Assembly (NCBI GenBank): GCA_022822265.1 | Contig: JAJECA010000047.1 | Coordinates: forward strand, 1,866-65,865 | DNA from: Acidimicrobiia bacterium | GTDB lineage: Bacteria; Actinomycetota; Acidimicrobiia; Acidimicrobiales; Bin134 | DNA length: 64,000 nt | Direction of reading: 5' to 3' | Shown: piece by piece, positions 2 to 44,462 of the stretch | Layout: the number at the start of each line of letters is the position of its first letter | Position numbering within the stretch: position 1 is the stretch's first letter | Notes under the pieces: model-generated | What the model was told of the DNA's origin: nothing | Databases searched by the model: none | The model's input: only the letters and a program-made list of their open reading frames with translations | Translations under genes and position numbers: made by a program

Positions 2-1141
2 GACGGATATGTGCGGGGAGAGGGATGCGGCGTATTGGTGCTGAAGCGGCTCAGCGATGCCGAGGCGGACGGAGACCGGATTTGGGGTGTCGTCCGGGGG
101 TCGGCAGTGAATCAGACCGGGGCCGGCCTGGCCGTCACCGTTCCCAGTGGGCGGGCCCAGGAGCGGGTAATGGTCGAAGCGCTGGCCCGGGCTGGCGTCG
201 CCCCTGATGAGGTTGACTACGTCGAGGCCCACGGCGTGGGCACGGAAGTAGGCGATTCAGTGGAGGCGAGCGCGATCGCCTCTGTTTACGGCCCAGGGCG
301 CGAGGAAGACCGCCCGGTATGGATCGGATCGGTGAAAACCAACATCGGGCACCTTGAAGGCGCCGCGGGGATGGCCGGCCTGATCAAGGTGGTGCTGGGA
401 ATGAGACATGGGACGGTTCCGAGGCACCTGAACTTCAGCGAGCCGAGCCCCGAGATCGCATGGGAGAGGATGCCGCTGAGAGTCGCCACCGAGGCGATCG
501 AATGGCCAGGAGACCCTGGTCGCCAGGCTTTGGCCGCGGTCAACTCGTTCGGAATCTCGGGGGCCAACTCCCACATCGTGGTGGAGGGGTACGAAGCCAC
601 TGCTGACGACCTCGATGGATTCGGCCCGCCGTGGCAGCCGATGGGGTCACCGCAAGCCGTGGCCGCCGGGGAATCGCCGCTCGGTGAGGGAGCGGAGCGG
701 CCCGAGAGACGGCTGCTGCCGTTGTCGGCCAAGACGCCGGAGGCGTTGAGAGAGCTGGCCCAGCGGTATCTCTCCTGGCTCGACGAGCACGCCGAGGAGC
801 TTGCGGCCAACGGCGCGGCAACCGATCCGCTGCTCTCCGACATGGCCTGGACGGCCAGCATCGGGCGGAGCCACTTCTCGCACCGGGCTGGGGTGGTGTT
901 CAGCGATGCGGAGTCCCTCCGCCGGCAACTCAGCGCCCTCCTCGAAATCGACGAGCAGCAAGCTCGAAGCGGTGCGTCGGTGCCTGCGAACGGCGATGAT
1001 CCGCTTGAGGCCGTTGCCGCGGAATATGCCGATGGGCAGGCGATTCAATTCGAGGGCCTGTTCCAGGGCGAGGAACGCCGTCGGATCTCACTGCCCGACT
1101 ACCCGTTCCAGCGACAGCGCTACTGGGTAGAGGCGAGGTAA
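2..1141 (+). CDS. Polyketide synthase, C-terminal part: ketosynthase domain plus KS-AT-type linker and post-AT-type motif, with no acyltransferase domain. The 5' end lies outside the window.
   Basis: The reading frame runs in from the window edge. KS motifs are present: EAHGVGTEVGD, SVKTNIGHLEGAAG, NSFGISGANSHIVVE. A linker follows (LLPLSAKTPEALREL...AWTASIGRSHFSHRAGVVF), and the protein ends ISLPDYPFQRQRYWVEAR-stop. No GHSxG acyltransferase segment is present. Confidence 0.85.
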   Translation, partial: DGYVRGEGCGVLVLKRLSDAEADGDRIWGVVRGSAVNQTGAGLAVTVPSGRAQERVMVEALARAGVAPDEVDYVEAHGVGTEVGDSVEASAIASVYGPGREEDRPVWIGSVKTNIGHLEGAAGMAGLIKVVLGMRHGTVPRHLNFSEPSPEIAWERMPLRVATEAIEWPGDPGRQALAAVNSFGISGANSHIVVEGYEATADDLDGFGPPWQPMGSPQAVAAGESPLGEGAERPERRLLPLSAKTPEALRELAQRYLSWLDEHAEELAANGAATDPLLSDMAWTASIGRSHFSHRAGVVFSDAESLRRQLSALLEIDEQQARSGASVPANGDDPLEAVAAEYADGQAIQFEGLFQGEERRRISLPDYPFQRQRYWVEAR

Positions 1142-1164
1142 GGGTTCAGGGGCAGTCAGGCCGA

Positions 1165-1192
1165 TTGACAATCGCCTGCTCCTTGATACACT
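1165..1192 (+). promoter_or_regulatory. Candidate sigma-A-type promoter inside the KS/carrier-protein spacer
   Basis: TTGACA (1165-1170), 16 nt, TACACT (1187-1192), with the -10 ending 37 nt upstream of ATG 1229. This is a sequence match only. Confidence 0.4.
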
Positions 1193-1228
1193 TTCCCCGC
1201 TTTCAATCGGTTGCAAAGGAGCAGGTGA

Positions 1229-1471
1229 ATGTCTTCCACTGAAGAGCGGATTAGGGCCATCGTCGATCAGACTTTGGAGATTGATGGACGAGAAGCAGGT
1301 CAGCCCTTGGACCTGTCTCGCAACGTTGCCGACGCGGGTGTCGCTTCTTCCGACATCGTGGCGTTTTGGCAATCGGTCAACCAGGAATTCGGCACGGACA
1401 TCTCCGCTGAGGAGTTCGCCGAGCTCTTGACGCCTCAAGACCTCATCAACCACCTCGATTCCTCTGGTTGA
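1229..1471 (+). CDS. Discrete acyl/peptidyl carrier protein (phosphopantetheine-binding)
   Basis: 80 aa and acidic. DAGVASSDIVAF sits where DxGxDSL is expected: the Ser is retained and the preceding Asp is replaced by Ala. AAGGAG RBS at 1216-1221. The gene lies between a KS gene and a PPTase gene. Confidence 0.7.
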   Translation: MSSTEERIRAIVDQTLEIDGREAGQPLDLSRNVADAGVASSDIVAFWQSVNQEFGTDISAEEFAELLTPQDLINHLDSSG

Positions 1472-2172
1472 TCGCCGACTCAGATAGCTGGTGGCACCGG
1501 TACAAGAGCATCGGTGCTATTGCTGTCTTCCACGTCGACCTGATTCCCGATCAGGGTCGCGAGGCCGAGGCCCTCTCGTGGCTCGACGGGGAAGAGCGCT
1601 CGCGCTGGGAGCGCTTTCAATCCCCGACCGCTCAACGGCGCTATGTGCTGTGCCGCGCCGCGCTCCGTGCCATTCTTTGCCGCCAGATCGGTTGTCCAAA
1701 CGAGTCATTGGCGTTTGAGGCCGCCAAACACGGCAAGCCGTTTGCCCTGGTCAACGGCCTGCCCGCCTCCATCAGCTTTAACGTGAGCCACAGCGGCACC
1801 CACGGGCTGATTGCCGTGGCGGCCAAGGGCCGCCTAGGCGTTGATGTAGAGGAGCGGGCTCCTCGCCGGAATCTCGAGAACCTCATCGAGGGCGTGTTCA
1901 GCCCGCGGGAGAAGGCTGAGCTGGAATCGCTTGAGGGGTGCCAGCAGCTTCACAAGTTCTTTCGCTTCTGGACGATCAAAGAGGCGCTCGTGAAAGCCCA
2001 CGGCAAGGGCCTTTCCATGAAGGTCGCCGAATTGGAGATCCCCGAAGAGATGCGCCATGGGGCTACGAAGAGCATCGGCCAGTTTGCTCAAATCCCCGAG
2101 ACTTCCTGGTGCTTGGAAGATATGGGAACGAGGGAATTCGCCGCAGCCATCGCCTATGAAGTAAGCCCATAA
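1468..2172 (+). CDS. 4'-phosphopantetheinyl transferase, Sfp type
   Basis: Motifs FNVSHSG, GVDVE and FWTIKEALVKAHGKG. The TTG start overlaps the carrier-protein stop (TTGA). Confidence 0.85.
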   Translation: MIADSDSWWHRYKSIGAIAVFHVDLIPDQGREAEALSWLDGEERSRWERFQSPTAQRRYVLCRAALRAILCRQIGCPNESLAFEAAKHGKPFALVNGLPASISFNVSHSGTHGLIAVAAKGRLGVDVEERAPRRNLENLIEGVFSPREKAELESLEGCQQLHKFFRFWTIKEALVKAHGKGLSMKVAELEIPEEMRHGATKSIGQFAQIPETSWCLEDMGTREFAAAIAYEVSP

Positions 2173-2174
2173 CC

Positions 2175-3080
2175 GTGACGGAGCAAGAAACGGCTTGGAG
2201 CGTTCCCGAGCCGCGGTCTGTGCACGAAGTGAAAATGGACGAAGAGTCGTCGATCTTGCTTCGTCGCCACGGAAACCCCGATGGCAATCGGCTGATCCTC
2301 AGCCATGGAAATGGCCTGGCCATCGACTTCTACTATCCGTTCTGGTCGCTTTTGACCGACGACTTCGACCTCATCGTCTACGACATGAGGAACCATGGTT
2401 GGAACGCGGTGGGCGGCCTGGAAAACCACAGTGTTCCGACGCTGGTTGGCGATCATGACCGCGTACTCGAGGAGATTGGCCGGCAATTCGGCCAGAAACC
2501 GCAGGTTGGCGTATTCCACTCCTTGTCGTGTCTCACGCCCCTCATTTCTGAATCCAAGGGCAGCGATTACTCGGCGCTCGTCTTGTTCGACCCGCCCCTG
2601 TGCAAGCCGGGCAGAAACTTTCGGGACTTCGAGGAAGCCGCAATCCGCATGGCGAAATCAGCCCGACGCCGCACCCATCGGTTCAAGACCAAGAGCGCGT
2701 TCACCGAGTTGTTCGGGATATTCCCCACCTACAAGGCGGCGGTTCCCGGGACGGTGGACCTGCTGGCCGATTCCACCCTGCGGGAAACCCCCGAAGGGGA
2801 GGGCTTCGAGCTGCGATGCCCTCGGGAGTACGAAGCGCAGATCATCGACTACGCCAGCGTCTTTGGAGCGTTCATCGACTTCTCCAAAATCCGCTGTCCG
2901 GTCAAGGTGCTCGGGGCCGATCCCACGCTGCCCTATTCGTACCTGCCGTCGCTGAACCTCAGCGATATCTCCAGCGTGGACTACGACTTTTTGCCCGAGG
3001 CAACCCACATGCTCCAGCTGGAGCAGCCCGAAGAATGCGCCGCCATCCTGCGGCAGTTCATCGAAGAGGTTCTCGACTAG
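2175..3080 (+). CDS. Alpha/beta-fold hydrolase (possible thioesterase or releasing enzyme)
   Basis: 301 aa. Contains an HGNG oxyanion-type segment (ILSHGNGLAIDF) and a nucleophile-elbow-like GVFHSLSC. The GTG start lies 2 nt after the PPTase stop. Confidence 0.65.
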   Translation: MTEQETAWSVPEPRSVHEVKMDEESSILLRRHGNPDGNRLILSHGNGLAIDFYYPFWSLLTDDFDLIVYDMRNHGWNAVGGLENHSVPTLVGDHDRVLEEIGRQFGQKPQVGVFHSLSCLTPLISESKGSDYSALVLFDPPLCKPGRNFRDFEEAAIRMAKSARRRTHRFKTKSAFTELFGIFPTYKAAVPGTVDLLADSTLRETPEGEGFELRCPREYEAQIIDYASVFGAFIDFSKIRCPVKVLGADPTLPYSYLPSLNLSDISSVDYDFLPEATHMLQLEQPEECAAILRQFIEEVLD

Positions 3081-3131
3081 GGGCGCCGGTCAGGTCGTCC
3101 GACCATTGCGATGCCGGGCTGGGGGTCTCGG

Positions 3132-3160
3132 TTGCCACCGTTAGTTGGGTTTCCTAGAGT
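3132..3160 (+). promoter_or_regulatory. Candidate promoter of Dpp-like module 1
   Basis: TTGCCA (3132-3137), 17 nt, TAGAGT (3155-3160). The same architecture recurs before module 2. Confidence 0.45.
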
Positions 3161-3281
3161 GTCGGCACCACAATCCATGAGGGGGAAGTGACATGCGTTC
3201 CTGGCTTTTCAGGCTATTGGCGCTGCTTATGGTTTTCGGCCTGGTGGCCGCGGCCTGCGGCAACGATGACGACGATGGGGT
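3151..3281 (+). repeat. Copy 1 of a conserved block of about 130 nt (-10 box, leader, RBS, signal peptide); partner at 7336-7466
   Basis: ttcctagagtgtcggcaccacaaTccatgagggggaagtgacatgcgttcctggcttttc... aligns with 7336-7466 with roughly 8 mismatches by eye. Confidence 0.9.
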
Positions 3282-4968
3282 CCAGACAGCTCCAGATGAG
3301 CCTGCGCCTACACAGGCTGCCGATGACGGCGATGAGCCGGCTCCCGCACCGTCTGGCGATGGCGAGGAAGATGCGGCCCCGGCTGAGCCATCGGATGACG
3401 GCGAAGATGCTACGCCCGCCGACGAGGAAGCAGCTCCTGCGGAAGAAGAGATGACGGATGCCTGCGAGGCCACCGTGCCTGGCACTGAGATCACCATGGG
3501 CATGTTCTCGGAAACCGCGGGACTTGATCCCACCGTTTCCTCGGGTTCAGGTACAACCGGGATGATCGAGCTGATGTCCCTTTACGACACGCTTATGCGC
3601 TACGACCAGGAGACCAAGGGGTATGTCCCGCACCTGGCTGAGGGTGTTGAGCCTAACGACGACCTCACGGAATGGACCTTGACTCTGCGCCCGGGGATCA
3701 CATTCTCCGACGGGACGCCGCTGGATACATCAGTGGTTCAGTCCAGCATGGAGAGGTTCTTAAGGGACGACCCGAGCGTCCGTAACCAGAGCAGGGCCTT
3801 CGTGGCGTGGATAGAGGAATACGAGATTCACGACGATCTGACTATGACCTTCCATCTCAGCCGCCCGTGGGGCACATTCCAATACGCCTTGGCCGACGAG
3901 CCCGGAATGATGATCAACCCCACCTTTGTGGAGGCCAATGGCCAAGAGCAGGTCAACCTCAATCCAGTTGGCGCCGGCCTCGGGCCCTACAACATTGAGC
4001 GCTATGCGCCTCAAGAGGAGATCGTTGTCAAGGCGAAGGACGACTATTGGGGTGGTCCGGTGTGTATCGAGACCATCCGCTTTGTCCGCATCCCCGGCGC
4101 GCCGGCCACCTATGAGGCGTTCCAGAACGACGAACTCGATGTGGCCTTCCTTCGGGAGCCTCGGGTCATCTTTGAGGCTCGGGAAAACGGAGACGGCGAA
4201 AATGGTTGGACTTTCCTCCAGAATTCGGGTGGGACCGTCTTGATCAACAACGGTGTGCGGGGATCCACTCCTCCCACCACCGATGTACGGCTACGAGAGG
4301 CGATCGCCTATGCCCTTGACACCGACGTTCTCGATGAGCGGGCCAATGAGGGCACTGGTAGCCCGACCTCCTCGATGTTGTCCGAAAAGTCCCTCTTCTG
4401 GGACGATGAACTGTTCGCTCCGGTTGAGCCCGATATTGAGCGGGCCCGGCAGTTGGTGCAGGAAGTCAAGGACGAAACCGGCTGGGACGGCAGCATTCGC
4501 ATGATCTGTCACAACGCCCCCAGCCGGATCGACTGGGCCATCGCGGCTGAAGCTCTGTTGGAGGCGGCCGGATTTGATGTGGACTTGGACAATGACGGCA
4601 CCGTCTTGGACATGGTTGGCGCCGTCCTCGTCCAGGCGGACTTCGATTTGTCATGTTGGGGCTTCAACGTGGCTGACGAGACCCCGTTCATCCCGCTTCT
4701 CCAATTCCACTCAGAAGCATCCAACAACCGCATCGGCTACAACGATCCTGAGATGGATGCCGCCTTGGAGACCCTTGCGGGGGCTACCAACAACGACCAG
4801 ATTCAGGCCAGCCTGGCCGAGATGTGGAGGGTGTGGCGGCAAAGCTGGCCCAGCGTTATCTATGAGACCACCGAAGAGCTTCTGATCTGGAAGCCCAATG
4901 TGAAAGGCATCGTTCCGACCCAGGCCAGCGGCCTGATGTTCTACGACGCTTACATTGACGAAGGCTGA
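3193..4968 (+). CDS. ABC transporter substrate-binding lipoprotein, family 5 (peptide/nickel/opine type)
   Basis: Signal and lipobox MRSWLFRLLALLMVFGLVAAAC, then a D/E/P/A-rich linker, then a family-5 SBP body (DDYWGGPVCIETIRFVRIPG, YEAFQNDELDVAFL). Strong RBS GAGGGGGAAG. Confidence 0.9.
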   Translation: MRSWLFRLLALLMVFGLVAAACGNDDDDGVQTAPDEPAPTQAADDGDEPAPAPSGDGEEDAAPAEPSDDGEDATPADEEAAPAEEEMTDACEATVPGTEITMGMFSETAGLDPTVSSGSGTTGMIELMSLYDTLMRYDQETKGYVPHLAEGVEPNDDLTEWTLTLRPGITFSDGTPLDTSVVQSSMERFLRDDPSVRNQSRAFVAWIEEYEIHDDLTMTFHLSRPWGTFQYALADEPGMMINPTFVEANGQEQVNLNPVGAGLGPYNIERYAPQEEIVVKAKDDYWGGPVCIETIRFVRIPGAPATYEAFQNDELDVAFLREPRVIFEARENGDGENGWTFLQNSGGTVLINNGVRGSTPPTTDVRLREAIAYALDTDVLDERANEGTGSPTSSMLSEKSLFWDDELFAPVEPDIERARQLVQEVKDETGWDGSIRMICHNAPSRIDWAIAAEALLEAAGFDVDLDNDGTVLDMVGAVLVQADFDLSCWGFNVADETPFIPLLQFHSEASNNRIGYNDPEMDAALETLAGATNNDQIQASLAEMWRVWRQSWPSVIYETTEELLIWKPNVKGIVPTQASGLMFYDAYIDEG

Positions 4969-4974
4969 TCCGTT

Positions 4975-5017
4975 GGTTGTCCCGCCCGCCCGCCGGTGCG
5001 TAGCGGGCGGGACAACC
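4975..5017 (+). terminator. GC-rich hairpin between the SBP and permease genes (attenuator or mRNA stabiliser; no U-tract)
   Basis: GGTTGTCCCGCCCGC (4975-4989) is the exact reverse complement of GCGGGCGGGACAACC (5003-5017), with a 13-nt loop. Confidence 0.4.
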
Positions 5018-5050
5018 AGGCCGCTCGTGGATATCGGAAGCTGATCTGGT

Positions 5051-6172
5051 GTGCTGAGAGTTATCGGGCTGAAGCTTGTCCGGTTGGTGCCGGTGCTCTT
5101 CATTGTGAGCGCGGCTACGTCACTGCTCATCGAGTTGGTTCCCGGCGACCCGATACTTGCCATCATCGGCACGGAAGGTCACCCAGAGGACTACGAGCGC
5201 ATCGAAAGGGAACTGGGCCTAGACCAAAACGTGGCGGCCCGATATCTCGATTGGCTGGGCAACATAGTCCAGGGGGATTTCGGCGAACAGATCACCCGAC
5301 CTGGGGTGACAGTGGCCGACCGTCTCAAGCAGACCTTTCCGGTGACCATCGAAATCGCCATGATCGGGATGGGACTGGCACTGCTTATTTCCGTTCCTGT
5401 CGGGACATGGGCCGCGTATCGGGCCGGCACCCGATTTGACAGGTTCAGCAGTGGAAGCGCCTTTGGGATCATTTCGATTCCCAGCTTTCTTGCCGGGCTG
5501 CTGCTGGTGTTCCTGTTCGTTTTCAATGCCACCATCCCCCGGTACGGGGTGTTGGTGCTGGGATTGGCTTGGTCAATCTGGCTGTTGTGGAGCGCAGGGC
5601 GCGAGCAGCGTGGCGGGGGTGGGGGCGTGATCGTCAGAATTGCGGCCGCAGTGGTGGTCGCCGGGCTGACGGTCTGGCTGACCAACAAGTGGCCCTCGTT
5701 TCCTCGACAAGGGTTCGTTCGTTGGACTTCCGATGAAGGCAGGTTGGAGAACCTTCGAAGCGCGTTCTTGCCTGCGGTCACAGTCGCTCTCACGGAGATC
5801 GCGGTGTTTATGCGGCTGTTGCGGGGGGATGTACAGGCCACCCTCCAGGAGGACTACATATTGTCGGCTCGGGCCAAGGGCATGCCGCCGGTCCGCATCT
5901 TGGCCCGCGACGCCCTGCGACCCTCCTCATTCTCGCTTATCACCCTGGCCGGCGTGGCCTTCGGTCGCCTTATCGGGGGAACGGTAATCGTGGAGGCAAT
6001 ATTCCGCTTGCCGGGGATGGGCACCCTCATTGTCAATGACGGGGTAAATACCGGAGATTTCCCCATAGTCCAAGGCGGCGTGCTGATTCTGGCCACGTTC
6101 TATGTGGTGTTGAACGGTGCCATAGATGTCTCCTATAGCTACCTGGATCCGAGGTTACGACGTGGCCGTTGA
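5051..6172 (+). CDS. ABC transporter permease, DppB/OppB type
   Basis: GTG start. N-terminus MLRVIGLKLVRLVPVLFIVS. Motifs SARAKG, ALRPSSFSLITL and FRLPGMG. Confidence 0.9.
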   Translation: MLRVIGLKLVRLVPVLFIVSAATSLLIELVPGDPILAIIGTEGHPEDYERIERELGLDQNVAARYLDWLGNIVQGDFGEQITRPGVTVADRLKQTFPVTIEIAMIGMGLALLISVPVGTWAAYRAGTRFDRFSSGSAFGIISIPSFLAGLLLVFLFVFNATIPRYGVLVLGLAWSIWLLWSAGREQRGGGGGVIVRIAAAVVVAGLTVWLTNKWPSFPRQGFVRWTSDEGRLENLRSAFLPAVTVALTEIAVFMRLLRGDVQATLQEDYILSARAKGMPPVRILARDALRPSSFSLITLAGVAFGRLIGGTVIVEAIFRLPGMGTLIVNDGVNTGDFPIVQGGVLILATFYVVLNGAIDVSYSYLDPRLRRGR

Positions 6173-7238
6173 CACCGCACTAGTGCCCGATACCGGCTAT
6201 GTGGCCGGGACGGCCATTGACCCGTTGAGCCACGCCCAGCGACTGATTCGATTGGCGGTCGGACTGGTAGGCGGGACGGCCGCCGTCATTGTTGGCTTGA
6301 TGGTGCTCACCGATGTGCATGCCGGATACCGGGTGTTGCTCACCGTCGGTGGACTGGCCTTGTTGTTCATGGCTCTCGACAACGCGGGCAAGCTGTTTCG
6401 GGGTCCACTATTCGAGACCGGCTTGTGGCTGTCAGTTATCTGGGTGGCCCTCATCGGACTGTCGGCCGCTTTTGCCGACTTTCTGCCATTTACTGAGTCC
6501 CGAGACGCCTCGGTCACGATATTCGAGGGCACTCCGATTCTGAAGCGTCCCGACTTGTTCTCGGCCAACCCGCTGGGGACCGACCGTCAGGCCTTGGACA
6601 TTCTTGGGGGCATCGTCTATGGGGCTCGGGTGTCGTTGCAGGTCAGTGTGCTGGCTGTGGCGATCGGCATATTGGTGGGCGGCACCATCGGAGTTGTGGC
6701 TGGCTTCTTCCGAGGCCGGCTCGACACGGGAATCGGCATTCTCACCGATTCGCTGCTTGCCTTCCCCCCGCTGATTTTGCTGTTGGCGCTGGCCAGCGTG
6801 ATGGACCGCACGCCGCGGAATATGGCCATTGCCCTAGCCGTGCTAGGCATTCCCACCTATATCCGCCTGGCCCGGGTCAACACCATGGTGTTCGCCGAGC
6901 GAGAGTTCGTGCTGGCCTCCCAGGCCATGGGGGCCAGCCGACGAAGGATCATATTCAAGGAACTGGTGCCCAACGTGGCCCTGCCCATCTTCAGCTACGC
7001 CTTCATCATCATTGCGGTATTGATCGTGGCCGAGGCCTCGCTGAGCTTCCTGGGCTTGGGCATCCAGCGACCCGATCCCACCTGGGGCAACATGATCGCG
7101 GCCGGACAAGACGACTTCGACCGCCACCCCCACCTTGTTTTCGCGCCCGGCATCGCCATGTTCCTCACCGTGTTCGCGCTCAACCGAGTGGGCGAGAAGG
7201 CCCGCGAGCTCTGGGACCCCCGCCAGGCGAATCTCTAG
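6126..7238 (+). CDS. ABC transporter permease, DppC/OppC type, with an N-terminal extension
   Basis: The C-terminal half has the SQAMGASRRRIIFKELVPNV loop region. ATG 6126 overlaps the upstream gene by 47 nt; the in-frame GTG 6162 is an alternative start. Confidence 0.85.
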   Translation: MSPIATWIRGYDVAVDTALVPDTGYVAGTAIDPLSHAQRLIRLAVGLVGGTAAVIVGLMVLTDVHAGYRVLLTVGGLALLFMALDNAGKLFRGPLFETGLWLSVIWVALIGLSAAFADFLPFTESRDASVTIFEGTPILKRPDLFSANPLGTDRQALDILGGIVYGARVSLQVSVLAVAIGILVGGTIGVVAGFFRGRLDTGIGILTDSLLAFPPLILLLALASVMDRTPRNMAIALAVLGIPTYIRLARVNTMVFAEREFVLASQAMGASRRRIIFKELVPNVALPIFSYAFIIIAVLIVAEASLSFLGLGIQRPDPTWGNMIAAGQDDFDRHPHLVFAPGIAMFLTVFALNRVGEKARELWDPRQANL

Positions 7239-7316
7239 CGCTCAGCATCGCCCGCCGGTGATCTTGGACGTGGGTTCGGTTGCTCCGACAGCCGGCGATT
7301 TTGGAAGTGGGTACGG

Positions 7317-7345
7317 TTGCCCCTTCAGCCGAGTTTTCCTAGAGT
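7317..7345 (+). promoter_or_regulatory. Candidate promoter of Dpp-like module 2
   Basis: TTGCCC (7317-7322), 17 nt, TAGAGT (7340-7345). Confidence 0.45.
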
Positions 7346-7466
7346 GTCGGCACCACAAACCATGAGGGGGAAGTGACATGCGTTCCTGGCTTTTCAAGCT
7401 ATTGGCGCTGCTAATGGTTTTCGGCTTGGTGGCCGCGGCCTGCGGCAACGACGACGATGACGGGGT
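7336..7466 (+). repeat. Copy 2 of the conserved leader/signal-peptide block (partner 3151-3281)
   Basis: Direct comparison with 3151-3281. Confidence 0.9.
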
Positions 7467-9195
7467 GACCACCGGGCCGGATGAGCCTGCGCCGGCTGAG
7501 CCCTCTGACGACGGTGACGACGCGCCCGCGCCAGCCGACGACGGGGACGATGAGCCGGCAGCGGAGCCCGCTGACGACGGCGAGGAGGCTCCCGCCGACG
7601 AGGTGATGATGGATGGCTGCGAGGCCACAGTGCCGGGCACCAAGGTCAACTACGCGGTGTTCTCGCCCAACGCCAACATGGACCCGACCGGCAGCAGCGG
7701 CGCCTTGGTAGGCGGCACCCAGATAGTGAACGTGTGGGACGTGTTGATGGCGTTCGACCCCGCAGCTGGCGTATCCAACGGCCAGGCCGCAGAGTCGCTG
7801 ACCCCCAATGACGACTTCACCGAGTGGACGCTGAAGATCCGCTCGGGCATCACCTACGGCAACGGCGATGCGTTCATTGCCCAAGACGTGGTCGACTCGA
7901 TGCTCCGCTTCTTCGACTCCCGCGGTGACGGAATGAACAACCGGGCGGCCGGATCCGTGGGCCTCATCGACTTCGACAACACCGAAGTCCCCGATGACAG
8001 CACCGTGATATTCCGACTCCATCGGGGTTGGAGCACCTTCCATACGCTGTTGGGCGACGAGCCCGGCATGATCGTGAACCCGCGCATCATCGCCCAGCTT
8101 CTGGATGAAGAGGCGGCCAACGCCACCGAGGAAACCAGCGCAGCCCGACTGGTCCGCAACCGGATGGCGGTAACCCCCGACCTGGTCAACGCAGCCAGCT
8201 TCGGTCCCTATGAGGTGGCCGAGGTGGAGCCCAACGTGCGAACCGTGCTGCGGGCCCGAGACAACTACTGGGGCGGCCCGGTGTGCATCGAGGAGATCGA
8301 GTTCACCTTCCCGGGCAGCTCGGTGGCCAACTGGGAGGCATTCCAGGCCGGCGACTTCAACGCCGCCTTCCTGCGTGATCCCCGGGTGTTTGCCGACGCT
8401 CGGGAGGCCGGTGCCGTACTGAGTTCTGAGGATCAGAACATCGGCGGGCTGTTCCTGTTCAACCAGGGCGTCCGTGGTGCCGAGGTCATCGGCAAGGACA
8501 TCAGGATCCGCCGGGCCATCCACCACGCCATCAACCGGGACATCATCAACGAGCGAGCCTTCGAGGGCAAGCTCAAGACCACCAACGCCATTGCTGCTGA
8601 GGGCACCTTGCTGTGGTCGCCCGAGTTGCAGGAATGCGCCGATCAGGCACCGAGCTACGATCCCGATGCCGCCGCGGCGCTGGTTGAAGAGGTGAAGGCT
8701 GACACTGGCTGGGACGGCTCCATGTTGCTGGTCCACGCCGACACCGATCCCGGACCTGAGATCGCCCAGGCAGTGGAGGGAATGCTGGAGGCCGCCGGCT
8801 TCGATATTGAGGTGGACCTCGGTCCCGTCACAACCGTGCTGATTCCCAGGGTCATCATCCAAGCCGACTACGAGATGGCCGGTTGGGGCTTCAACGCCGA
8901 CGGTGCCACTTGGGTGGCGTCGCTCAACGACAACCTCCTGTCCACCAGCGGCTCCAACCGGATGGCTTTCGCCCACCCGGACATGGACGCCGCGCTGGGC
9001 GAGCTCTACGGAGCGGCGAACGTGGATGACCAGCGGGCCGCAATTGCAGCCGTGCAGTGCGTGTGGTCGGAGCAGCTGCCCGCCATGGTCTACTCGGTGA
9101 CCGAGGAGGGCTTGGCCCTCGCCCCGAACATCAAGGGTGTCCAGCGGGCTGGCGCCACGATCTTCCTGTTCGGGAACGCCTATATCGAGAACTGA
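7378..9195 (+). CDS. ABC transporter substrate-binding lipoprotein, family 5 (paralog of 3193-4968)
   Basis: Signal peptide MRSWLFKLLALLMVFGLVAAAC, an acidic linker, and DNYWGGPVCIEEIEFTFPG / WEAFQAGDFNAAFL. Confidence 0.9.
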   Translation: MRSWLFKLLALLMVFGLVAAACGNDDDDGVTTGPDEPAPAEPSDDGDDAPAPADDGDDEPAAEPADDGEEAPADEVMMDGCEATVPGTKVNYAVFSPNANMDPTGSSGALVGGTQIVNVWDVLMAFDPAAGVSNGQAAESLTPNDDFTEWTLKIRSGITYGNGDAFIAQDVVDSMLRFFDSRGDGMNNRAAGSVGLIDFDNTEVPDDSTVIFRLHRGWSTFHTLLGDEPGMIVNPRIIAQLLDEEAANATEETSAARLVRNRMAVTPDLVNAASFGPYEVAEVEPNVRTVLRARDNYWGGPVCIEEIEFTFPGSSVANWEAFQAGDFNAAFLRDPRVFADAREAGAVLSSEDQNIGGLFLFNQGVRGAEVIGKDIRIRRAIHHAINRDIINERAFEGKLKTTNAIAAEGTLLWSPELQECADQAPSYDPDAAAALVEEVKADTGWDGSMLLVHADTDPGPEIAQAVEGMLEAAGFDIEVDLGPVTTVLIPRVIIQADYEMAGWGFNADGATWVASLNDNLLSTSGSNRMAFAHPDMDAALGELYGAANVDDQRAAIAAVQCVWSEQLPAMVYSVTEEGLALAPNIKGVQRAGATIFLFGNAYIEN

Positions 9196-9248
9196 GCTCA
9201 AAAGGAGCAATTCTGAGCAACTAAAGCTCTAAAGCGAGGAAGAGCACC

Positions 9249-10376
9249 GTGCTACGGGTGATCGGCTTGAAGCTGGTCCGGCTCGTGCCGGTGCTCTTCC
9301 TCGTTTCATTGGCCACCTTCTTCCTGGTCGATCTGATTCCCGGCGACCCGGCCGCCAACATGCTGGGCACTGACGCCACAATTGAGGATTTGGAGGCGGT
9401 CAGAAAGTCGCTGGGCCTGGACAAGCCGATCACCGACCGCTACGTGGACTGGCTGAGCGGTGCGCTGAGCGGCGATTTGGGTCTGTCGTTGCGGTCTCCC
9501 AATGAGCCGGTAACCGACCTGATCCAGCGCAGCGTTGGGCCCACGCTGCGCTTGTCCGCCATGGCGTTGGGAATGTCGTTCACCATCGCGATCTTCTTGG
9601 GGGTCTGGTCGGCTCAGGCGGCTGGAACTCGGGTCGACCGGTTGGTGAGCGGCACCATGTTCGGCTTCATCTCGGTCCCCACGTTCTTGGCTGGCCTTCT
9701 GTTCATCTTCTTCTTCGTGTTCCGCGAATCCATCCCCCGCTGGCTGTGGGTCATCGGCATGGGGCTGATCGTTCTGCGGCTGCTTTATCTGGCCATCAGC
9801 CGACTAGTCGAAGACCGCGCCCACTTCTCTGGGTGGTTCGGATATGCCATTGCCACGCTGGTGGTGGCCGGTCTCATGATGTGGGTGTTCGTCCAGTGGC
9901 CCGACTTCCCCCGCACCGCCTCTCACCGCTACGACGACAACTGGCGCGAGCAGATTCGCTCGCTGTTTTTGCCCGCGCTGGCCCTGGCCTTGAGCGAGAT
10001 CGCCGTTTTCACCCGGCTGTTGAGGGCTGACATGCTGTCGACCCTTCAGGAGCAATTCGTGCTGTCGGCCCGGGCCAAGGGCATGCCCACGTGGCGGATC
10101 TTGTTCCGCGACGCGCTGCGCCCGTCGTCGTTCTCTCTCATCACCGTGGCCGGAATCACGCTGGGCCGGCTCATCGGCGGGACGGTCATCATCGAGACCA
10201 TCTTCGGCTTAGATGGGCTGGGCAAGCTGATCGTGGGCACCGGGGTGATCCCCAAGAACTACACCATCGTGCAGGGCGGTGTGCTGGTGCTGGCCGTGGG
10301 CTACGTGATGCTGAACGCCATAATCGACATCTCCTACCAGTACCTCGATCCGAGAATCAGGCGGGGGCGTGTCTGA
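9249..10376 (+). CDS. ABC transporter permease, DppB/OppB type (paralog)
   Basis: MLRVIGLKLVRLVPVLFLVS, SARAKG, ALRPSSFSLITV. Confidence 0.9.
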   Translation: MLRVIGLKLVRLVPVLFLVSLATFFLVDLIPGDPAANMLGTDATIEDLEAVRKSLGLDKPITDRYVDWLSGALSGDLGLSLRSPNEPVTDLIQRSVGPTLRLSAMALGMSFTIAIFLGVWSAQAAGTRVDRLVSGTMFGFISVPTFLAGLLFIFFFVFRESIPRWLWVIGMGLIVLRLLYLAISRLVEDRAHFSGWFGYAIATLVVAGLMMWVFVQWPDFPRTASHRYDDNWREQIRSLFLPALALALSEIAVFTRLLRADMLSTLQEQFVLSARAKGMPTWRILFRDALRPSSFSLITVAGITLGRLIGGTVIIETIFGLDGLGKLIVGTGVIPKNYTIVQGGVLVLAVGYVMLNAIIDISYQYLDPRIRRGRV

Positions 10377-11430
10377 GACGACGAATGACACGATCGCCCT
10401 AGGCGAGGCTGAGGTTCGAGCTCGCAGTGCCGAGCCTCGGCCATTCTGGCTCTGGCCGCTGCTGCCCATCGGCATTGCGGTGATTTTCGTGGGCACCATG
10501 GTGCTCAACGATGTGACCGCCGAGATCAGGGTCGCCCTGGTGCTGGCGGGGATCGTGGGCGGATACTTCGGCCTAGACGCGCTTTGTCAGAGGCGCTGGG
10601 GATCGAGCTTTGACACCTCGGCGTGGCTGTCGGGGTTCTGGCTGGTGCTCATTGGGCTTTCGGCCATAACTGTGGCTTGGCTGCCGCTGCAAGAGTCCAA
10701 GTTGGTGAAGAACACGATTGGCGACACCCCGCGCCTTCGGCCCGATCTCTTCTCTGAACATCCCCTCGGAACCAATTCCCAAGCGCTCGACATATTGGGC
10801 GGGGTGATGTGGGGGGCGCGCACGTCGCTGATCATCAGCCTGGGGGCGGTGGCCATAGGCTTGTTGATCGGGGGGATTATCGGAATCGCGGCGGGCTATT
10901 ACCGGGGCCCCTTTGACAGCGGGGTGGGGATTCTGGCCGACTCCCTGCTGGCCTTTCCGCCGCTGATCCTGCTGGTGGCGATGGCCACGATTTTCACCCA
11001 GAACCAATGGACCATGGCGCTGGAACTGTCGCTCTTGGGAATCCCGACCTACATCCGATTGGCTCGGGCCAACACATTGACCTTCGCCCAGAGGGAGTTT
11101 GTTTTGGCCGCCAAGTCCATGGGGTCGGGGGACCGGCGCGTCATTTTTCGGGAGCTGATGCCCAACGTGGCGCTGCCCATGGTTTCGTATGCCTTCTTGG
11201 TGACCGCGGTGCTGATAGTGGCTGAGGCCTCCCTCAGCTTCCTGGGCGTGGGCATCCAGCCCCCCGAACCAACGTGGGGCAACATGATCGAGGCGGGCCA
11301 GGAGAACTACAAGGACCATCCCCACTTGGTGTTCGTGCCCGGCATTGTGATGTTCATGACCGTGTTCGCCCTCAACCGAGTAGGCGACAAGGCCCGCGAG
11401 CGCTGGGACCCCCGCGAAGCCCAGATCTAG
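10369..11430 (+). CDS. ABC transporter permease, DppC/OppC type (paralog)
   Basis: The GTG start overlaps the upstream stop by 8 nt. AKSMGSGDRRVIFRELMPNV; the C-terminus FALNRVGDKARERWDPREAQI parallels that of 6126-7238. Confidence 0.85.
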   Translation: MSETTNDTIALGEAEVRARSAEPRPFWLWPLLPIGIAVIFVGTMVLNDVTAEIRVALVLAGIVGGYFGLDALCQRRWGSSFDTSAWLSGFWLVLIGLSAITVAWLPLQESKLVKNTIGDTPRLRPDLFSEHPLGTNSQALDILGGVMWGARTSLIISLGAVAIGLLIGGIIGIAAGYYRGPFDSGVGILADSLLAFPPLILLVAMATIFTQNQWTMALELSLLGIPTYIRLARANTLTFAQREFVLAAKSMGSGDRRVIFRELMPNVALPMVSYAFLVTAVLIVAEASLSFLGVGIQPPEPTWGNMIEAGQENYKDHPHLVFVPGIVMFMTVFALNRVGDKARERWDPREAQI

Positions 11431-36178: not shown

Positions 36179-36261
36179 GGGGGCTCCTCTCCGATTGCTA
36201 CTGCGAGGCTATGTCGCATTGAGGCGCCAAGGCGGCTTCAAGCCGGCAGGCAAGCAATTTG

Positions 36262-36334
<73 letters not shown>

Positions 36335-41551: not shown

Positions 41552-42022
41552 ATGGCTGAGCTTCATCCGGCGTGTGCACCGCTGGCGTTCCTGCTGGGAA
41601 CGTGGCAGGGCGCGGGTACGGGGGTGTATCCCACCATCGAGGATTTCTCCTATGCCGAGGAGGTTTCCTTCACCCACGTGGGCAAGCCGTTCGTGGCCTA
41701 TGTGCAGAAGACCAAGGACGCGGGCACCGGTCTGCCCCTGCACTCCGAGGCCGGATTTCTGCGCCCCCAGCCCGACGGGCGCGTTGAATTGGTGCTGGCC
41801 CAGCCCTCGGGAGTAGCCGAGGTGCTGGAGGGCACCGTGGAGGGACGCGACATCCAGCTGTCCTCCACTGCGGTGCTGGGCACCGATTCGACCAAGCCGG
41901 TTGCCGCCACCGAGCGGCGGCTGTGGGTGGAAGGCGAGGTGCTGCACTCCTCGGTGGCCATGGCGGCCATGGGGCTGGATCTCCAGCACCACGTTGTATC
42001 CGAGATGTATCGCCTGTCATGA
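41552..42022 (+). CDS. Nitrobindin/FABP-like (THAP4-type) heme-binding beta-barrel protein
   Basis: LAFLLGTWQGAGTGVYPTIEDFSYAEEVSFTHVGKPFVAY...HSEAGFLR. Confidence 0.8.
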   Translation: MAELHPACAPLAFLLGTWQGAGTGVYPTIEDFSYAEEVSFTHVGKPFVAYVQKTKDAGTGLPLHSEAGFLRPQPDGRVELVLAQPSGVAEVLEGTVEGRDIQLSSTAVLGTDSTKPVAATERRLWVEGEVLHSSVAMAAMGLDLQHHVVSEMYRLS

Positions 42023-42813
42023 CCCGGGGGCGCTCCGAGCGGGTGCTGGTGCGCCATTGGGATGGGTCCGAGGAGCACCGGCGCCCCGACGAGCTGGTGG
42101 TGGAAGAGCCGCTCACCATCGAGCTCGACGCCGTGACGGTGACCACAACCATGCGCACTCCCGGCCACGATTTCGAGCTGGCCGCGGGGTTCTGCTTCAC
42201 CGAGGGGCTATTGGGGGACGCCTCTGTGACCTCCATCCGCTACTGCGCCAACGAGCCGGCCACCGACACCGAGTTCAACCTGGTCACGGTGGAAACCGAC
42301 GGCGCTCCTCCGCCCACCCCCCGTCTGGGCTTGACCACTTCGGCGTGCGGGCTGTGCGGGGCCGAGAGCATCGAGGCGCTGCAGGAGCGGCTGAGCCCCC
42401 TGCCCGCGGGCGGGCCGCCCATCTCGGCCGACTTGCTGGCCGCGGTGCCCGAGCGGGTGCGGGCCTTCCAAGACTTGTTCGGTACCACCGGGGGAGTGCA
42501 CGCGGCGGCCGCCTTCGGGGCCGACGGAGAGCCCACCCTGGTGCGAGAGGACATCGGCCGCCACAACGCGGTGGACAAGGTGGTGGGCCGAATGCTGCTC
42601 GACGACGCCCTGCCCGCCAGCGGCCTAGGGCTGTTTGTGAGCGGCCGGGCGTCGTTCGAGATGGTGCAGAAGGCATGGGCGGCCGGCTTCGGTGTGCTGG
42701 TGGCGGTGAGCGCCCCCTCGGCGCTGGCGGTGGAGACGGCCGCGGCGGCCGGGCTGTGCCTGGCCGGATTCGTGCGCGACGGCCAACTCAACTTCTACTC
42801 CCCGTCTGGATAA
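42019..42813 (+). CDS. fdhD: Formate dehydrogenase accessory sulfurtransferase FdhD
   Basis: TMRTPGHDFELAAGFCFTEG, SACGLCG, DIGRHNAVDK. ATGA overlap with the upstream gene. Confidence 0.9.
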   Translation: MTRGRSERVLVRHWDGSEEHRRPDELVVEEPLTIELDAVTVTTTMRTPGHDFELAAGFCFTEGLLGDASVTSIRYCANEPATDTEFNLVTVETDGAPPPTPRLGLTTSACGLCGAESIEALQERLSPLPAGGPPISADLLAAVPERVRAFQDLFGTTGGVHAAAAFGADGEPTLVREDIGRHNAVDKVVGRMLLDDALPASGLGLFVSGRASFEMVQKAWAAGFGVLVAVSAPSALAVETAAAAGLCLAGFVRDGQLNFYSPSG

Positions 42814-42824
42814 GAATCCTGGGC

Positions 42825-44462
42825 ATGCGCCCTCTGCCCAAGCTCACGCCCGAAAACGAGTTCTTCTGGACGGCGGGAGCCGACGGCGTGCTGCGCTTCC
42901 AGTACTGCGCAGCCAGCGACCGCTACCTCCATCCCCCCGGTGCGGTGTGCCCGGGTTGTGGAGAGCCGCCCGAGATCAGGGAGGTGTCGGGGCGGGCCAC
43001 GGTGGTGGGGGTGACCGTGAACTACCAGCCCTGGCTGCCCGACATGGAGGTGCCCTATGTGATCGGGCTGGTGGCCATCGAGGAGGACCCCTTGGTGCGG
43101 CTCACCACCCTCATCGTGGACGCCGAGCCCGAAGACGTGGTGATCGGCCTGCCGGTGTCGGTGCGCTTCGAGCAGCACAAGGACGTGTGGCTGCCAGTGT
43201 TCGCCCCCACCGGCGAGCCGCCGGTTGAGGCGGACGAGTACCCCGAGCCCGCCCCGGCGCCGGTGCGGGCCATGCCAGTTTCCGACAAGTTCGAGTCGAA
43301 GGTGGCCATCACCGGGATCGGGTTGTCGGAGGTGGGCCGGCGGCTGGGGCGCGATCCCATGGGCCTGGCGGTGGAGGCCTGCCAAGCGGCGGTGGCCGAC
43401 GCCGGGCTCACTATGGACGACATAGACGGCCTGTCCACCTATCCGGGGGGCACCGCCAAAGACGGCGGTCACTCCGAGGGCGGCATCTACCCGGTGGCCG
43501 ACGCCCTGGGCATCGCCCCCACCTGGTTCTGCGGCACGGGGGAGACCCCCGGCCAGAGCGGCGCGGTGGTCAACGCCATGCTGGCGGTGGCCTCTGGGCT
43601 GTGCCGCCACGTGCTGTGCTTTCGCACCGTTTGGGAGACCACGTCGATCGCCTGGGGCAACCGCCAGAACACCGGGGTGGGCGGGGGCGCCCGCATATCC
43701 GGAGAGATGGAGTGGCGGCTTCCCTATGGGGCCATGTCGGCGGGCAACTGGATCGCGCTTATGGCCAGCCACTACTTCCACCGCTACGGCGCCACCCGGG
43801 AGCAGCTGGGGTGGATTCCGGTGACCGAGCGGGCCGGCGCGGCCCACAACCCGGTGGCCATCTACCAGGAGCCGATGACCATCGACGACTACCTGGATGC
43901 CCGCATGATCACCACTCCGTTCGGCCTGTTCGACTGCGACGTGCCCTGCGACGGCTCCACCGCCCTGGTGGTGTCGGCGGTGGACGCCGCGTCCGACGGC
44001 CCCCACCGACCGGTGCTGGTGGAGGCGGTGGGCACCCAGATGCGCGAGCGGATGTCGTGGGACCAGGGAACGCTGCTGCACGAGCCGATGGTGGACGGAC
44101 CCTCGGCCCACCTGTGGAGCCGCACCGACTTGAAGCCCGCCGATGTGGACGTGGCTCTGTTGTACGACGGGTTCAGCTTCAATGCGCTGTCGTGGCTGGA
44201 GGGACTGGGGTTTTGCGGCAAAGGCGAGGGGGCGGCGTTCGTTGAGGGCGGCACCCGCATCGCCCGCGACGGGGAGATCCCACTCAACCCCCACGGAGGA
44301 CAGCTCTCGGCCGGACGGCTGCACGGCTACGGGTTCCTTCACGAGGCGGTTACCCAGCTCCGGGGCCACGGGGGCGGGCGGCAGGTGGACGGCGCCGAGG
44401 TGGCGGTGGTCAGCACCGGCGGAGGCCATCCCGGCGGGACGTTTATTTTTGTTAGGGGATGA
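42825..44462 (+). CDS. Fusion of a DUF35 (Zn-ribbon/OB-fold) domain with a thiolase-like (SCP-x/lipid-transfer type) domain
   Basis: N-terminal part: FFWTAGADGVLRFQYC...CPGCG...VIGLVAIEE...VRF. A Pro-rich linker follows. C-terminal part: VAITGIGLSEVGRR...DCDVPCDGSTALVV...NPHGGQLSAGRLHG. Confidence 0.8.
   Translation: MRPLPKLTPENEFFWTAGADGVLRFQYCAASDRYLHPPGAVCPGCGEPPEIREVSGRATVVGVTVNYQPWLPDMEVPYVIGLVAIEEDPLVRLTTLIVDAEPEDVVIGLPVSVRFEQHKDVWLPVFAPTGEPPVEADEYPEPAPAPVRAMPVSDKFESKVAITGIGLSEVGRRLGRDPMGLAVEACQAAVADAGLTMDDIDGLSTYPGGTAKDGGHSEGGIYPVADALGIAPTWFCGTGETPGQSGAVVNAMLAVASGLCRHVLCFRTVWETTSIAWGNRQNTGVGGGARISGEMEWRLPYGAMSAGNWIALMASHYFHRYGATREQLGWIPVTERAGAAHNPVAIYQEPMTIDDYLDARMITTPFGLFDCDVPCDGSTALVVSAVDAASDGPHRPVLVEAVGTQMRERMSWDQGTLLHEPMVDGPSAHLWSRTDLKPADVDVALLYDGFSFNALSWLEGLGFCGKGEGAAFVEGGTRIARDGEIPLNPHGGQLSAGRLHGYGFLHEAVTQLRGHGGGRQVDGAEVAVVSTGGGHPGGTFIFVRG

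Follow-up and report, generated by a model that had tools for sequence, protein, structure and literature searches.

A terminal ketosynthase that keeps its linkers but not its acyltransferase: the 3' end of a probable Sup-type polyketide synthase cassette in an Acidimicrobiia bacterium

How does a polyketide synthase (PKS) come to end on a ketosynthase (KS) that possesses both of the linkers which normally flank an acyltransferase (AT), but not the acyltransferase itself, and from where would the carrier protein that follows then obtain an extender unit? This question is raised by positions 2-3080, + strand, of a 64,000-nt stretch of Acidimicrobiia DNA (contig JAJECA010000047.1; 'the window'). 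Found there is the end of a PKS gene, followed by genes for a discrete acyl carrier protein (ACP), a phosphopantetheinyl transferase (PPTase), and an alpha/beta-hydrolase. Our answer, to which we would assign a probability of roughly 0.7, is that this segment is the 3' end of a Sup-type cassette, with the terminal ketosynthase (KS2) belonging to a split second module whose ACP would be loaded in trans. Sup is an unusually small, mono-modular PKS which dominates the KS amplicons of high-microbial-abundance sponges and which has been proposed to make mid-chain methyl-branched fatty acids, its producer having been left unresolved (PMC4245539). SUP clusters have been described from metagenome-assembled genomes (MAGs) of Chloroflexota, Spirochaetota, and Proteobacteria as well as of Acidobacteriota, in all sponges surveyed (PMC9426513), and for Ircinia a link between Sup-PKS and branched fatty acids has been drawn (PMC4210886). 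SupE is recorded as a permease (PMC3908369).

The window begins inside the PKS gene, with the frame open from position 2 and a stop codon at 1139-1141. The remainder was read from a 20.7-kb stretch, here L001, of a public 112-kb metagenome scaffold that was found through the PPTase sequence. L001 matches the window over 12.1 kb with 0 mismatches and a single 30-nt gap, that apparently within a downstream transporter gene, and as it is otherwise identical to the window and extends upstream, the full-length PKS gene can be read from it. This gene (L001:102-9674) encodes one protein of 3190 aa whose Pfam domain order is KS1-AT1-DH-cMT-ER-KR-ACP1-KS2-linker domain-post-AT linker, with DH, cMT, ER, and KR standing for dehydratase, C-methyltransferase, enoylreductase, and ketoreductase. 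Ending 20 nt before the PKS gene is that of a 578-aa NCS2 (Xan_ur) permease (L001:1-82 is its end), so the cassette consists of five genes in the order NCS2 permease, PKS, discrete ACP, Sfp-type PPTase, and alpha/beta-hydrolase. An earlier reading of the segment, made from the letters of the window alone (the sequence-only reading), had placed a cluster edge here, and the PKS genes do end at the hydrolase. It had supposed as well that the body of the cluster lies upstream, with product class unknown, and this part finds no support, as upstream are only 2811 aa of the same gene plus the permease, i.e., a compact five-gene unit which is found across phyla. Properties by which Sup is described are seen in this unit and its relatives: a small, mono-modular type I PKS, like a fatty acid synthase (FAS) and with a C-methyltransferase; an adjoining SupE-like permease; and presence in many bacterial phyla of sponge microbiomes.

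Within the window, the PKS fragment contains HGVGT, NIGH, LLPLSAKTPEALREL, AWTASIGRSHFSHRAGVVF, and ISLPDYPFQRQRYW, and stops 4 residues past YPFQRQRYW. The post-KS2 stretch comes to ~180 aa, not the about 170 aa of the sequence-only reading, which nonetheless was correct as to its presence, and is made up of a spacer, a linker domain, a ~18-aa junction, and a ~45-aa post-AT linker. Acyl_transf_1 was not found in this fragment by Pfam scan. Alignment of KS2 and its linkers to module 1 of the same protein runs along residues 7-558 at 53% identity and resumes at residues 882-931 at 60%, thereby exactly skipping the AT of module 1 (residues 559-881). As it is exactly the AT that is missing from this alignment, the terminal unit is a duplicated KS-AT didomain without its AT, and the earlier claim of an absent AT with both flanking linkers retained thus stands. 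KS1 is indeed the closest relative of KS2 (53%), and KS2, as judged by alignment, is a paralogue of KS1 within the same polypeptide. The retained linker region forms a compact beta-alpha-alpha-beta-alpha unit in a low-confidence AlphaFold model (P0002, 75% identical), with the modeled AT-less ACP-KS2 tail having a mean predicted local distance difference test score (pLDDT) of 59 and a shallow alignment.

What became of the AT can be read from relatives, for which the 610-aa segment from KS2 to the protein's end served as homology query. Returned were many proteins with the KR, ACP, KS, and linker families and without an AT, at ~100% query coverage, the named ones coming from MAGs of sponge-type lineages. 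Classes were assigned for the 120 nearest homologues and catalytic states for 62 genomic loci. Of the former, 24 are AT-less, about 71 carry a shortened terminal AT remnant, and 5 are of a KS1-AT1 type with full AT; 23 are truncated and not classifiable. The sequence-only reading had held that the AT was excised or never present. Excision is the part which survives, as about two thirds of relatives hold a remnant at the exact position, with that remnant excised in about one third, this Acidimicrobiia lineage included. Gemmatimonadaceae and Chloroflexi members, for example, display an AT-like domain after KS2 and end at the same YPFQRxRxW motif. This remnant, AT2, is 169-250 aa long versus 320 aa for AT1, i.e., ~70-150 aa shorter. 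BLAST covers AT1 residues ~2-137 and ~202-322, so the lost part appears to be central. The nucleophile position of AT2 is Gly or Asp (GHGLGE, GQGVGE, GRDLGE; GxGxGE/GxDxGE) and never Ser over ~44 loci; AT1 reads GHSLGE in L001 and GHSxGE in 56 of 57 loci. On these motifs and lengths, AT2 is a family-wide pseudo-AT.

On a KS2 tree, neighbor-joining and without support values, the AT-less state occupies the whole Acidimicrobiia clade, one Dehalococcoidia clade, four single Dehalococcoidia positions, and a Gammaproteobacteria pair, hence 5 or more distinct places (the 'noAT' label of one locus, L037, is a frameshift artefact and was left out of AT-less counts). The simplest reading is that the family's ancestor already had a second AT without function, which was later excised repeatedly, the lineage of the window representing one such excision. 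The AT-less junctions vary, spanning 83-101 residues from HRAG to the C-terminus with differing filler sequence. Every AT-less junction examined keeps both the final part of the linker domain and the post-AT linker, and the latter is present in all AT-less and AT-remnant relatives alike, 0-16 residues from the C-terminus. Most likely these linkers are kept as structural parts of the KS condensing unit rather than as a dock for a trans-acting AT. That they outlast every deletion is natural evidence for such a role, and should be useful as well for the engineering of AT-less modules.

An AT-less end could be the product instead of misassembly, of a frameshift, or of a recent, functionless truncation, and the source is after all a metagenome assembly, with a window that starts inside of the PKS gene. 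The ending recurs, however, across many independent assemblies, and it is seen with the same frame in 10 Acidimicrobiia loci, several of them in closed chromosomes of 3.4-3.7 Mb. Dehalococcoidia and Gammaproteobacteria have further AT-less forms. The post-AT linker, moreover, stays in frame and is conserved, and the genes downstream of it are intact, with translational coupling. An artefact or pseudogene is scarcely credible in light of these observations.

The terminal KS has stayed intact, whereas the AT that belongs to it is dead in all members that were examined and has repeatedly been deleted. The triad of KS2 is complete, consisting of DLACTSS (Cys), EAHGVGT, and NIGH, with the Cys found upstream of the window and seen in L001 only; the sequence-only reading, which had judged the KS to be catalytically intact from the two His motifs, is borne out. 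Cys-His-His is kept in about 60 of 62 family loci, across phyla, the exceptions being a His-to-Gln in L038 and a His-to-Tyr in L036, and this retention suggests selection for decarboxylative condensation by KS2. It nevertheless may be asked whether KS2 elongates, or whether it is instead a transfer or gatekeeping KS, one which takes the finished chain from ACP1 and delivers it either to the discrete ACP or to the hydrolase, absent both condensation and malonyl loading. Such a role would account for how the AT could die. A dead or absent AT after KS2, in every member examined, would fit with there being no extender unit, and KS2 departs from canonical motifs as well, with DPLQR for DPQQR and HGVGT for HGTGT. 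Non-elongating KSs (the KS0 of trans-AT systems) typically lose the catalytic His, however, whereas in KS2 the His motifs match the non-loss state and the Cys is kept along with both His. We consider a non-elongating KS2 to be unlikely.

A different possibility is that KS2 and the discrete ACP together prime the synthase, i.e., that they act before module 1, either decarboxylating malonyl-ACP or accepting an acyl primer for KS1. An external (fatty acyl) starter could enter by way of a discrete ACP that is provided with its own PPTase, and in iterative systems the order of action need not follow position within the polypeptide. KSQ domains, the decarboxylating kind of loading KS, carry Gln in place of the active-site Cys, though, while here it is Cys that is found (DLACTSS in L001; invariant in the family), and for KS2 to come directly after ACP1 is the usual arrangement of donor and acceptor. 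A priming unit consequently strikes us as quite improbable. Both KSQ and KS0 were considered as identities for KS2 and were rejected, with Cys-His-His being intact.

The sequence-only reading had viewed the missing AT 'as in trans-AT systems'. Taken in full, this would mean that an AT encoded elsewhere, free-standing and dedicated, supplies both KS2 and the discrete ACP, with the linkers as its docking scaffold. The layout, consisting of KS, linker domain, and wrap-back linker, is indeed the same as that of the AT-less trans-AT KS structures (4qyr, 4tkt, and 4zdn), which align over the entire 610-aa query, and the discrete ACP does need to be loaded in trans by something. The same polypeptide nonetheless holds a complete cis-AT module with an intact AT1, such that its modules do not all lack an integrated AT, and no discrete AT gene is seen: there is no AT-like open reading frame elsewhere in the 64-kb window, nor a stand-alone AT gene adjoining the cassette across 80 related loci that represent about 10 phyla, where the few extra matches are supA genes in the other orientation. 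The best solved single-domain match of KS2 is, furthermore, a cis-AT KS-AT, CurL, at 427 bits, ahead of GfsA, of DEBS, and of the trans-AT PksJ (7zma heads the structure list, but with a score that sums two matched stretches), and KS2 is a paralogue of a cis-AT KS1. What does agree with a trans-AT system is a KS plus flanking subdomain without AT, and this the relatives show to be secondary, as in them a cis AT is seen first decayed and then deleted. In its final layout KS2 thus converges on the AT-less trans-AT KSs, while its origin and its context are cis-AT. An upstream cis-AT module whose AT serves this KS had been named beforehand as what would count against the trans-AT view; such a module is present in form, with AT1 presumably serving KS2 and its ACP. 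A dedicated AT encoded elsewhere we accordingly think very unlikely.

The three genes downstream are, as a Pfam scan of the four proteins confirmed, what they had been taken for previously, and are presumably what supB, supC, and supD encode. The discrete ACP matches PP-binding at 33.3 bits versus a cut-off of 20.8, along with weak NCBIfam acyl_carrier matches. Its predicted phosphopantetheine-bearing residue is Ser40 (nt 1346-1348), within GVA-S-SD (residues 37-42; window 1337-1354). The sequence-only reading was right as to GVASSD at this Ser, but not in seeing there an oddity of this gene, as G[VIL][SAP]-S-x-[DQE] rather than GxDS[LI] is the normal motif of the ACP family. Over 70+ orthologues the Ser is invariant, and the Asp before it is absent from all of them, with Ser, Ala, or Pro found in its place. 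The TTG start of the PPTase overlaps the ACP stop as TTGA (1468-1471), an overlap kept in L006/L007, and 2 nt separate the PPTase from the GTG of the hydrolase at 2175; both had been reported earlier and can be read directly in the sequence. The PPTase is a two-domain protein of about 230 aa (Pfam ACPS 1.3e-18; AASDHPPT_N 5.3e-10). HetI is its top NCBIfam match (3.7e-32), though at 111 bits versus an equivalog cut-off of 370, for which reason we describe it as Sfp/HetI-like and not as HetI itself. A polyunsaturated fatty acid (PUFA)-synthase or heterocyst-glycolipid context, as might be suggested by a HetI-like PPTase and by a partial match to PfaA, was ruled out by architecture, by the cMT, and by synteny.

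No protein of the cassette is more conserved than the hydrolase (Pfam Abhydrolase_6, 42.8 bits versus a cut-off of 26.3), whose mean column identity across phyla is 76%. More than 3000 homologues exist, the 120 best of which share 60% identity or more and have a length of about 301 aa, and N-terminal conservation from W8 supports the start at 2175. Its predicted triad consists of Ser116 (GVFHS), Asp249 (GADP), and His278 (ATH), all invariant in the family, with a nucleophile elbow that reads (F/Y)-H-S-x-(S/A) rather than G-x-S-x-G. In alignment with a solved hydrolase, Ser116 is paired with the Ser of GHSAG, a weak match which at E = 0.03 is also the best, i.e., there is no meaningful relative of this hydrolase among solved structures. 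An AlphaFold model has a mean pLDDT of 51, from a shallow alignment.

How, then, might these parts work together? Module 1 would act in a FAS-like manner, building or extending on ACP1 a reduced, optionally C-methylated acyl chain. KS2 would receive that chain from ACP1 and perform one more decarboxylative condensation, this with malonate held by the discrete ACP. As the family has no working second AT, this ACP must be loaded in trans, for which AT1 of the same dimeric synthase or else cellular FabD would be candidates. The PPTase would activate both carriers, and the hydrolase would release or transfer the product. Alternatively, the chain could move from the discrete ACP onto type II FAS enzymes, and the methyl branch would then be placed mid-chain. 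In its general form, this would make the Sup family a type I/type II hand-over device, one in which the FAS-like module contributes a single methyl-branched C2 unit, KS2 extends the chain on a discrete, FAS-like ACP malonylated by AT1 or FabD, and the chain is re-injected into primary fatty-acid synthesis; such a device we propose tentatively, considering it possible though rather doubtful.

Module 1 is KS-AT-DH-cMT-ER-KR-ACP, a single module with S-adenosylmethionine (SAM), NADPH, and DH motifs and, in KS1, DPQQR and HGTGT. By its motifs it would be FAS-like, fully reducing, and C-methylating. The suggestion that the pathway stands apart from fatty-acid metabolism consequently does not hold up, as a FAS-like, C-methylating module fits with Sup, for which methyl-branched fatty acids have been proposed (PMC4245539, PMC9426513). 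At the catalytic Tyr position of the KR, however, is His, as seen in an ungapped alignment of GQSNHAAAN here versus GQGAYAAAN of mycocerosic acid synthase (MAS). This His (L001:7150-7180, PKS residue about 2355) occurs in 66 of 66 family members examined, while the KR Lys, Ser, and NADPH site are kept in most members, as too are the ER, DH, and cMT motifs. If this KR is active, then its chemistry would be non-canonical.

The cassette belongs, as an ordinary case, to a family that is known and very widespread but functionally uncharacterised. With one genome scanned per species, at least 551 species-level genomes hold a relative. The best 80 of these are all uncultured MAGs, from about 10 phyla and many with sponge-type isolate labels, and include Acidimicrobiia, Dehalococcoidia, Latescibacterota, Gemmatimonadota, Binatia, Thermodesulfobacteriota, Gammaproteobacteria, Acidobacteriota, and Opitutales. 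Closest are Acidimicrobiia genomes at 95% and 94% identity, with Candidatus Poriferisocius (Acidimicrobiales, Ca. Hopanoidivoransaceae) the nearest named relative, at 82%. We infer a host that is a sponge-associated, uncultured Acidimicrobiia bacterium related to Ca. Poriferisocius, with the cassette chromosomal; the remainder of the window consists of chromosomal housekeeping genes. The arrangement of PKS (3196-3441 aa), ACP, PPTase, and hydrolase with adjoining Xan_ur permease is seen as well around distant hydrolase homologues, in a Gemmatimonadaceae MAG, in a Chloroflexi MAG, and in 3.4-Mb contigs of close relatives, and by tblastn mapping the cassette order is found in most of 80 further loci. 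The permease, 576-578 aa, adjoins the cassette in L001, in L003-L005 (L003:10974-12704), and in about 45 further loci.

Some variation upon this arrangement exists. Across phyla, the permease, of nucleobase type though the cassette is a lipid/polyketide one, lies upstream in some loci, on the same strand, and in others downstream, where it is convergent. In rearranged cassettes (L017, L020, L022, L024, L026, L027, L035, and L039-L042) the hydrolase, often together with ACP and PPTase, does not directly follow the PKS. These belong to some Dehalococcoidia, SAR202, and Acidimicrobiales, and in them the PKS is elsewhere or inverted, or else there is an intervening permease.

Several considerations weigh against the interpretation offered here. 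Identification as Sup is based on shared properties and not on direct alignment to the supA-E clones. The supA-E cluster was reportedly the subject of Fieseler et al. 2007 (AEM 73:2144) and Hochmuth et al. 2010, with the fosmids pAPKS18, pAE27P20, and pSW1H8 said to be the clones in question and ABE03914 the SupE record. No Sup-named record was present among homologue matches or cluster members. Searching with the permease of L039, together with a look-up of cluster members, yielded no 'SupE'-named record. That locus is in a SAR202 MAG, which we take to derive from Aplysina aerophoba. The number of independent AT deletions is approximate, given the unsupported tree from which it comes. Should the His-bearing KR be inactive, then to describe module 1 as fully reducing and FAS-like is wrong. 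A sponge origin is read from the names and labels of relatives rather than from sample metadata. Lastly, loading of the ACP by AT1 or FabD, the additional condensation by KS2, and the role of the hydrolase are all things which we infer.

Features of the PKS protein (residues, as read in L001) and of the 3' end of the cassette (window positions)
Feature	Location	Strand	Evidence or motifs
KS1	PKS residues 7-385		Pfam
AT1	PKS residues 570-851		Pfam Acyl_transf_1, 1.9e-58
DH	PKS residues 942-1244		Pfam
cMT	PKS residues 1458-1629		Pfam
ER	PKS residues 1912-2198		Pfam
KR	PKS residues 2213-2389		Pfam
ACP1	PKS residues 2493-2558		Pfam
KS2	PKS residues about 2585-3010		
Linker domain and post-AT linker	PKS, on to residue 3190, then stop		
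KS2, C-terminal half	2..595	+	Pfam Ketoacyl-synt_C 2.8e-42; EAHGVGT, NIGH
Low-complexity spacer and KS-AT linker domain (LLPLSAKTPEALREL ... GRSHFSHRAGVVFSDAESLRRQLSALLE)	596..946	+	Pfam KAsynt_C_assoc, CurL-like_PKS_C, RhiE-like_linker
AT-deletion junction, ~18 residues of low-complexity filler (IDEQQARSGASVPANGDD)	947..1000	+	Alignments to module 1 and to family
Post-AT linker (PLEAVAAEYADGQAIQFEGLFQGEERRRISLPDYPFQRQRYW), 4 further residues, stop	1001..1141	+	60% identity to module-1 residues 882-931
AAGGAG ribosome-binding site, 7 nt 5' of ACP ATG	1216..1221	+	Direct sequence reading
Discrete 80-aa ACP (probable SupB type)	1229..1471	+	Pfam PP-binding
Sfp/HetI-type PPTase, 234 aa, TTG start	1468..2172	+	Pfam ACPS and AASDHPPT_N
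Alpha/beta-hydrolase, 301 aa, GTG start	2175..3080	+	Pfam Abhydrolase_6

Elsewhere in the window are two tandem, paralogous operons for oligopeptide-type ABC transporters (3193-7238 and 7378-11430), each consisting of an SBP_bac_5 lipoprotein and two permeases. The 5' region of the first (3129-3308) shares 88% identity with that of the second (7314-7493), and in both the lipobox is followed by an acidic linker of low complexity. The 30-nt indel relative to L001 is consistent with the second SBP gene there encoding 615 aa, versus 605 aa in the window. In a protein of 853 aa (41901-44462), a ChsH2-type OB-fold domain occurs together with one that is thiolase-C-like, a combination resembling enzymes of steroid/hopanoid side-chain degradation; the nearest named family, as it happens, is 'Hopanoidivoransaceae'. 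Rfam and ARAGORN detect a single RNA gene in the window, a tRNA-Thr (TGT) at 36261-36334, - strand.

Few biosynthetic genes are as abundant in sponge microbiomes as those of Sup PKSs, and what is described here would place a Sup cassette in the chromosome of a sponge-associated Acidimicrobiia bacterium. This cassette may be compared with related systems that have been described. As gauged from published descriptions, it is like Sup in its mono-modular FAS-like PKS with cMT, in its permease, and in its occurrence in many phyla in sponges, and the DPQQ and HGTGT of its KS1 are targets of the primers which define the Sup amplicon group. Most Sup-type relatives differ from it in keeping a dead AT remnant, while the lineage of the window is without any AT after the terminal KS.

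With trans-AT KSs (4qyr, 4tkt, 4zdn; PksJ 4na1) are shared a KS, a flanking subdomain, and a wrap-back linker without AT, along with a carrier that is loaded in trans. Here, however, that state has arisen by secondary deletion within a cis-AT synthase, one which retains AT1 and whose cassette is without a discrete AT gene. Trans-AT KSs continue, too, into processing domains, whereas the protein of the window stops right after the linker.

Mycobacterial MAS and MAS-like PKSs (9d2y, 5bp1, 5bp4) supply the closest solved KR (1.4e-44) and are likewise FAS-like and fully reducing, i.e., KS-AT-DH-ER-KR-ACP, acting iteratively and producing methyl-branched fatty acids. They obtain their branches from methylmalonyl-CoA, though, possess neither a cMT nor a second KS, do not come with a discrete ACP/PPTase/hydrolase set, and keep the KR Tyr where here there is His. 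Swf, the 'sponge widespread FAS', is another mono-modular FAS-like PKS/FAS that is widespread in sponge symbionts (PMC3908369). SwfA nevertheless is KS-AT-DH-ER-KR-ACP, without cMT and without a second KS, and is partnered by a reductase-sulfotransferase together with a radical SAM enzyme rather than by an ACP, a PPTase, and a hydrolase (PMC3908369).

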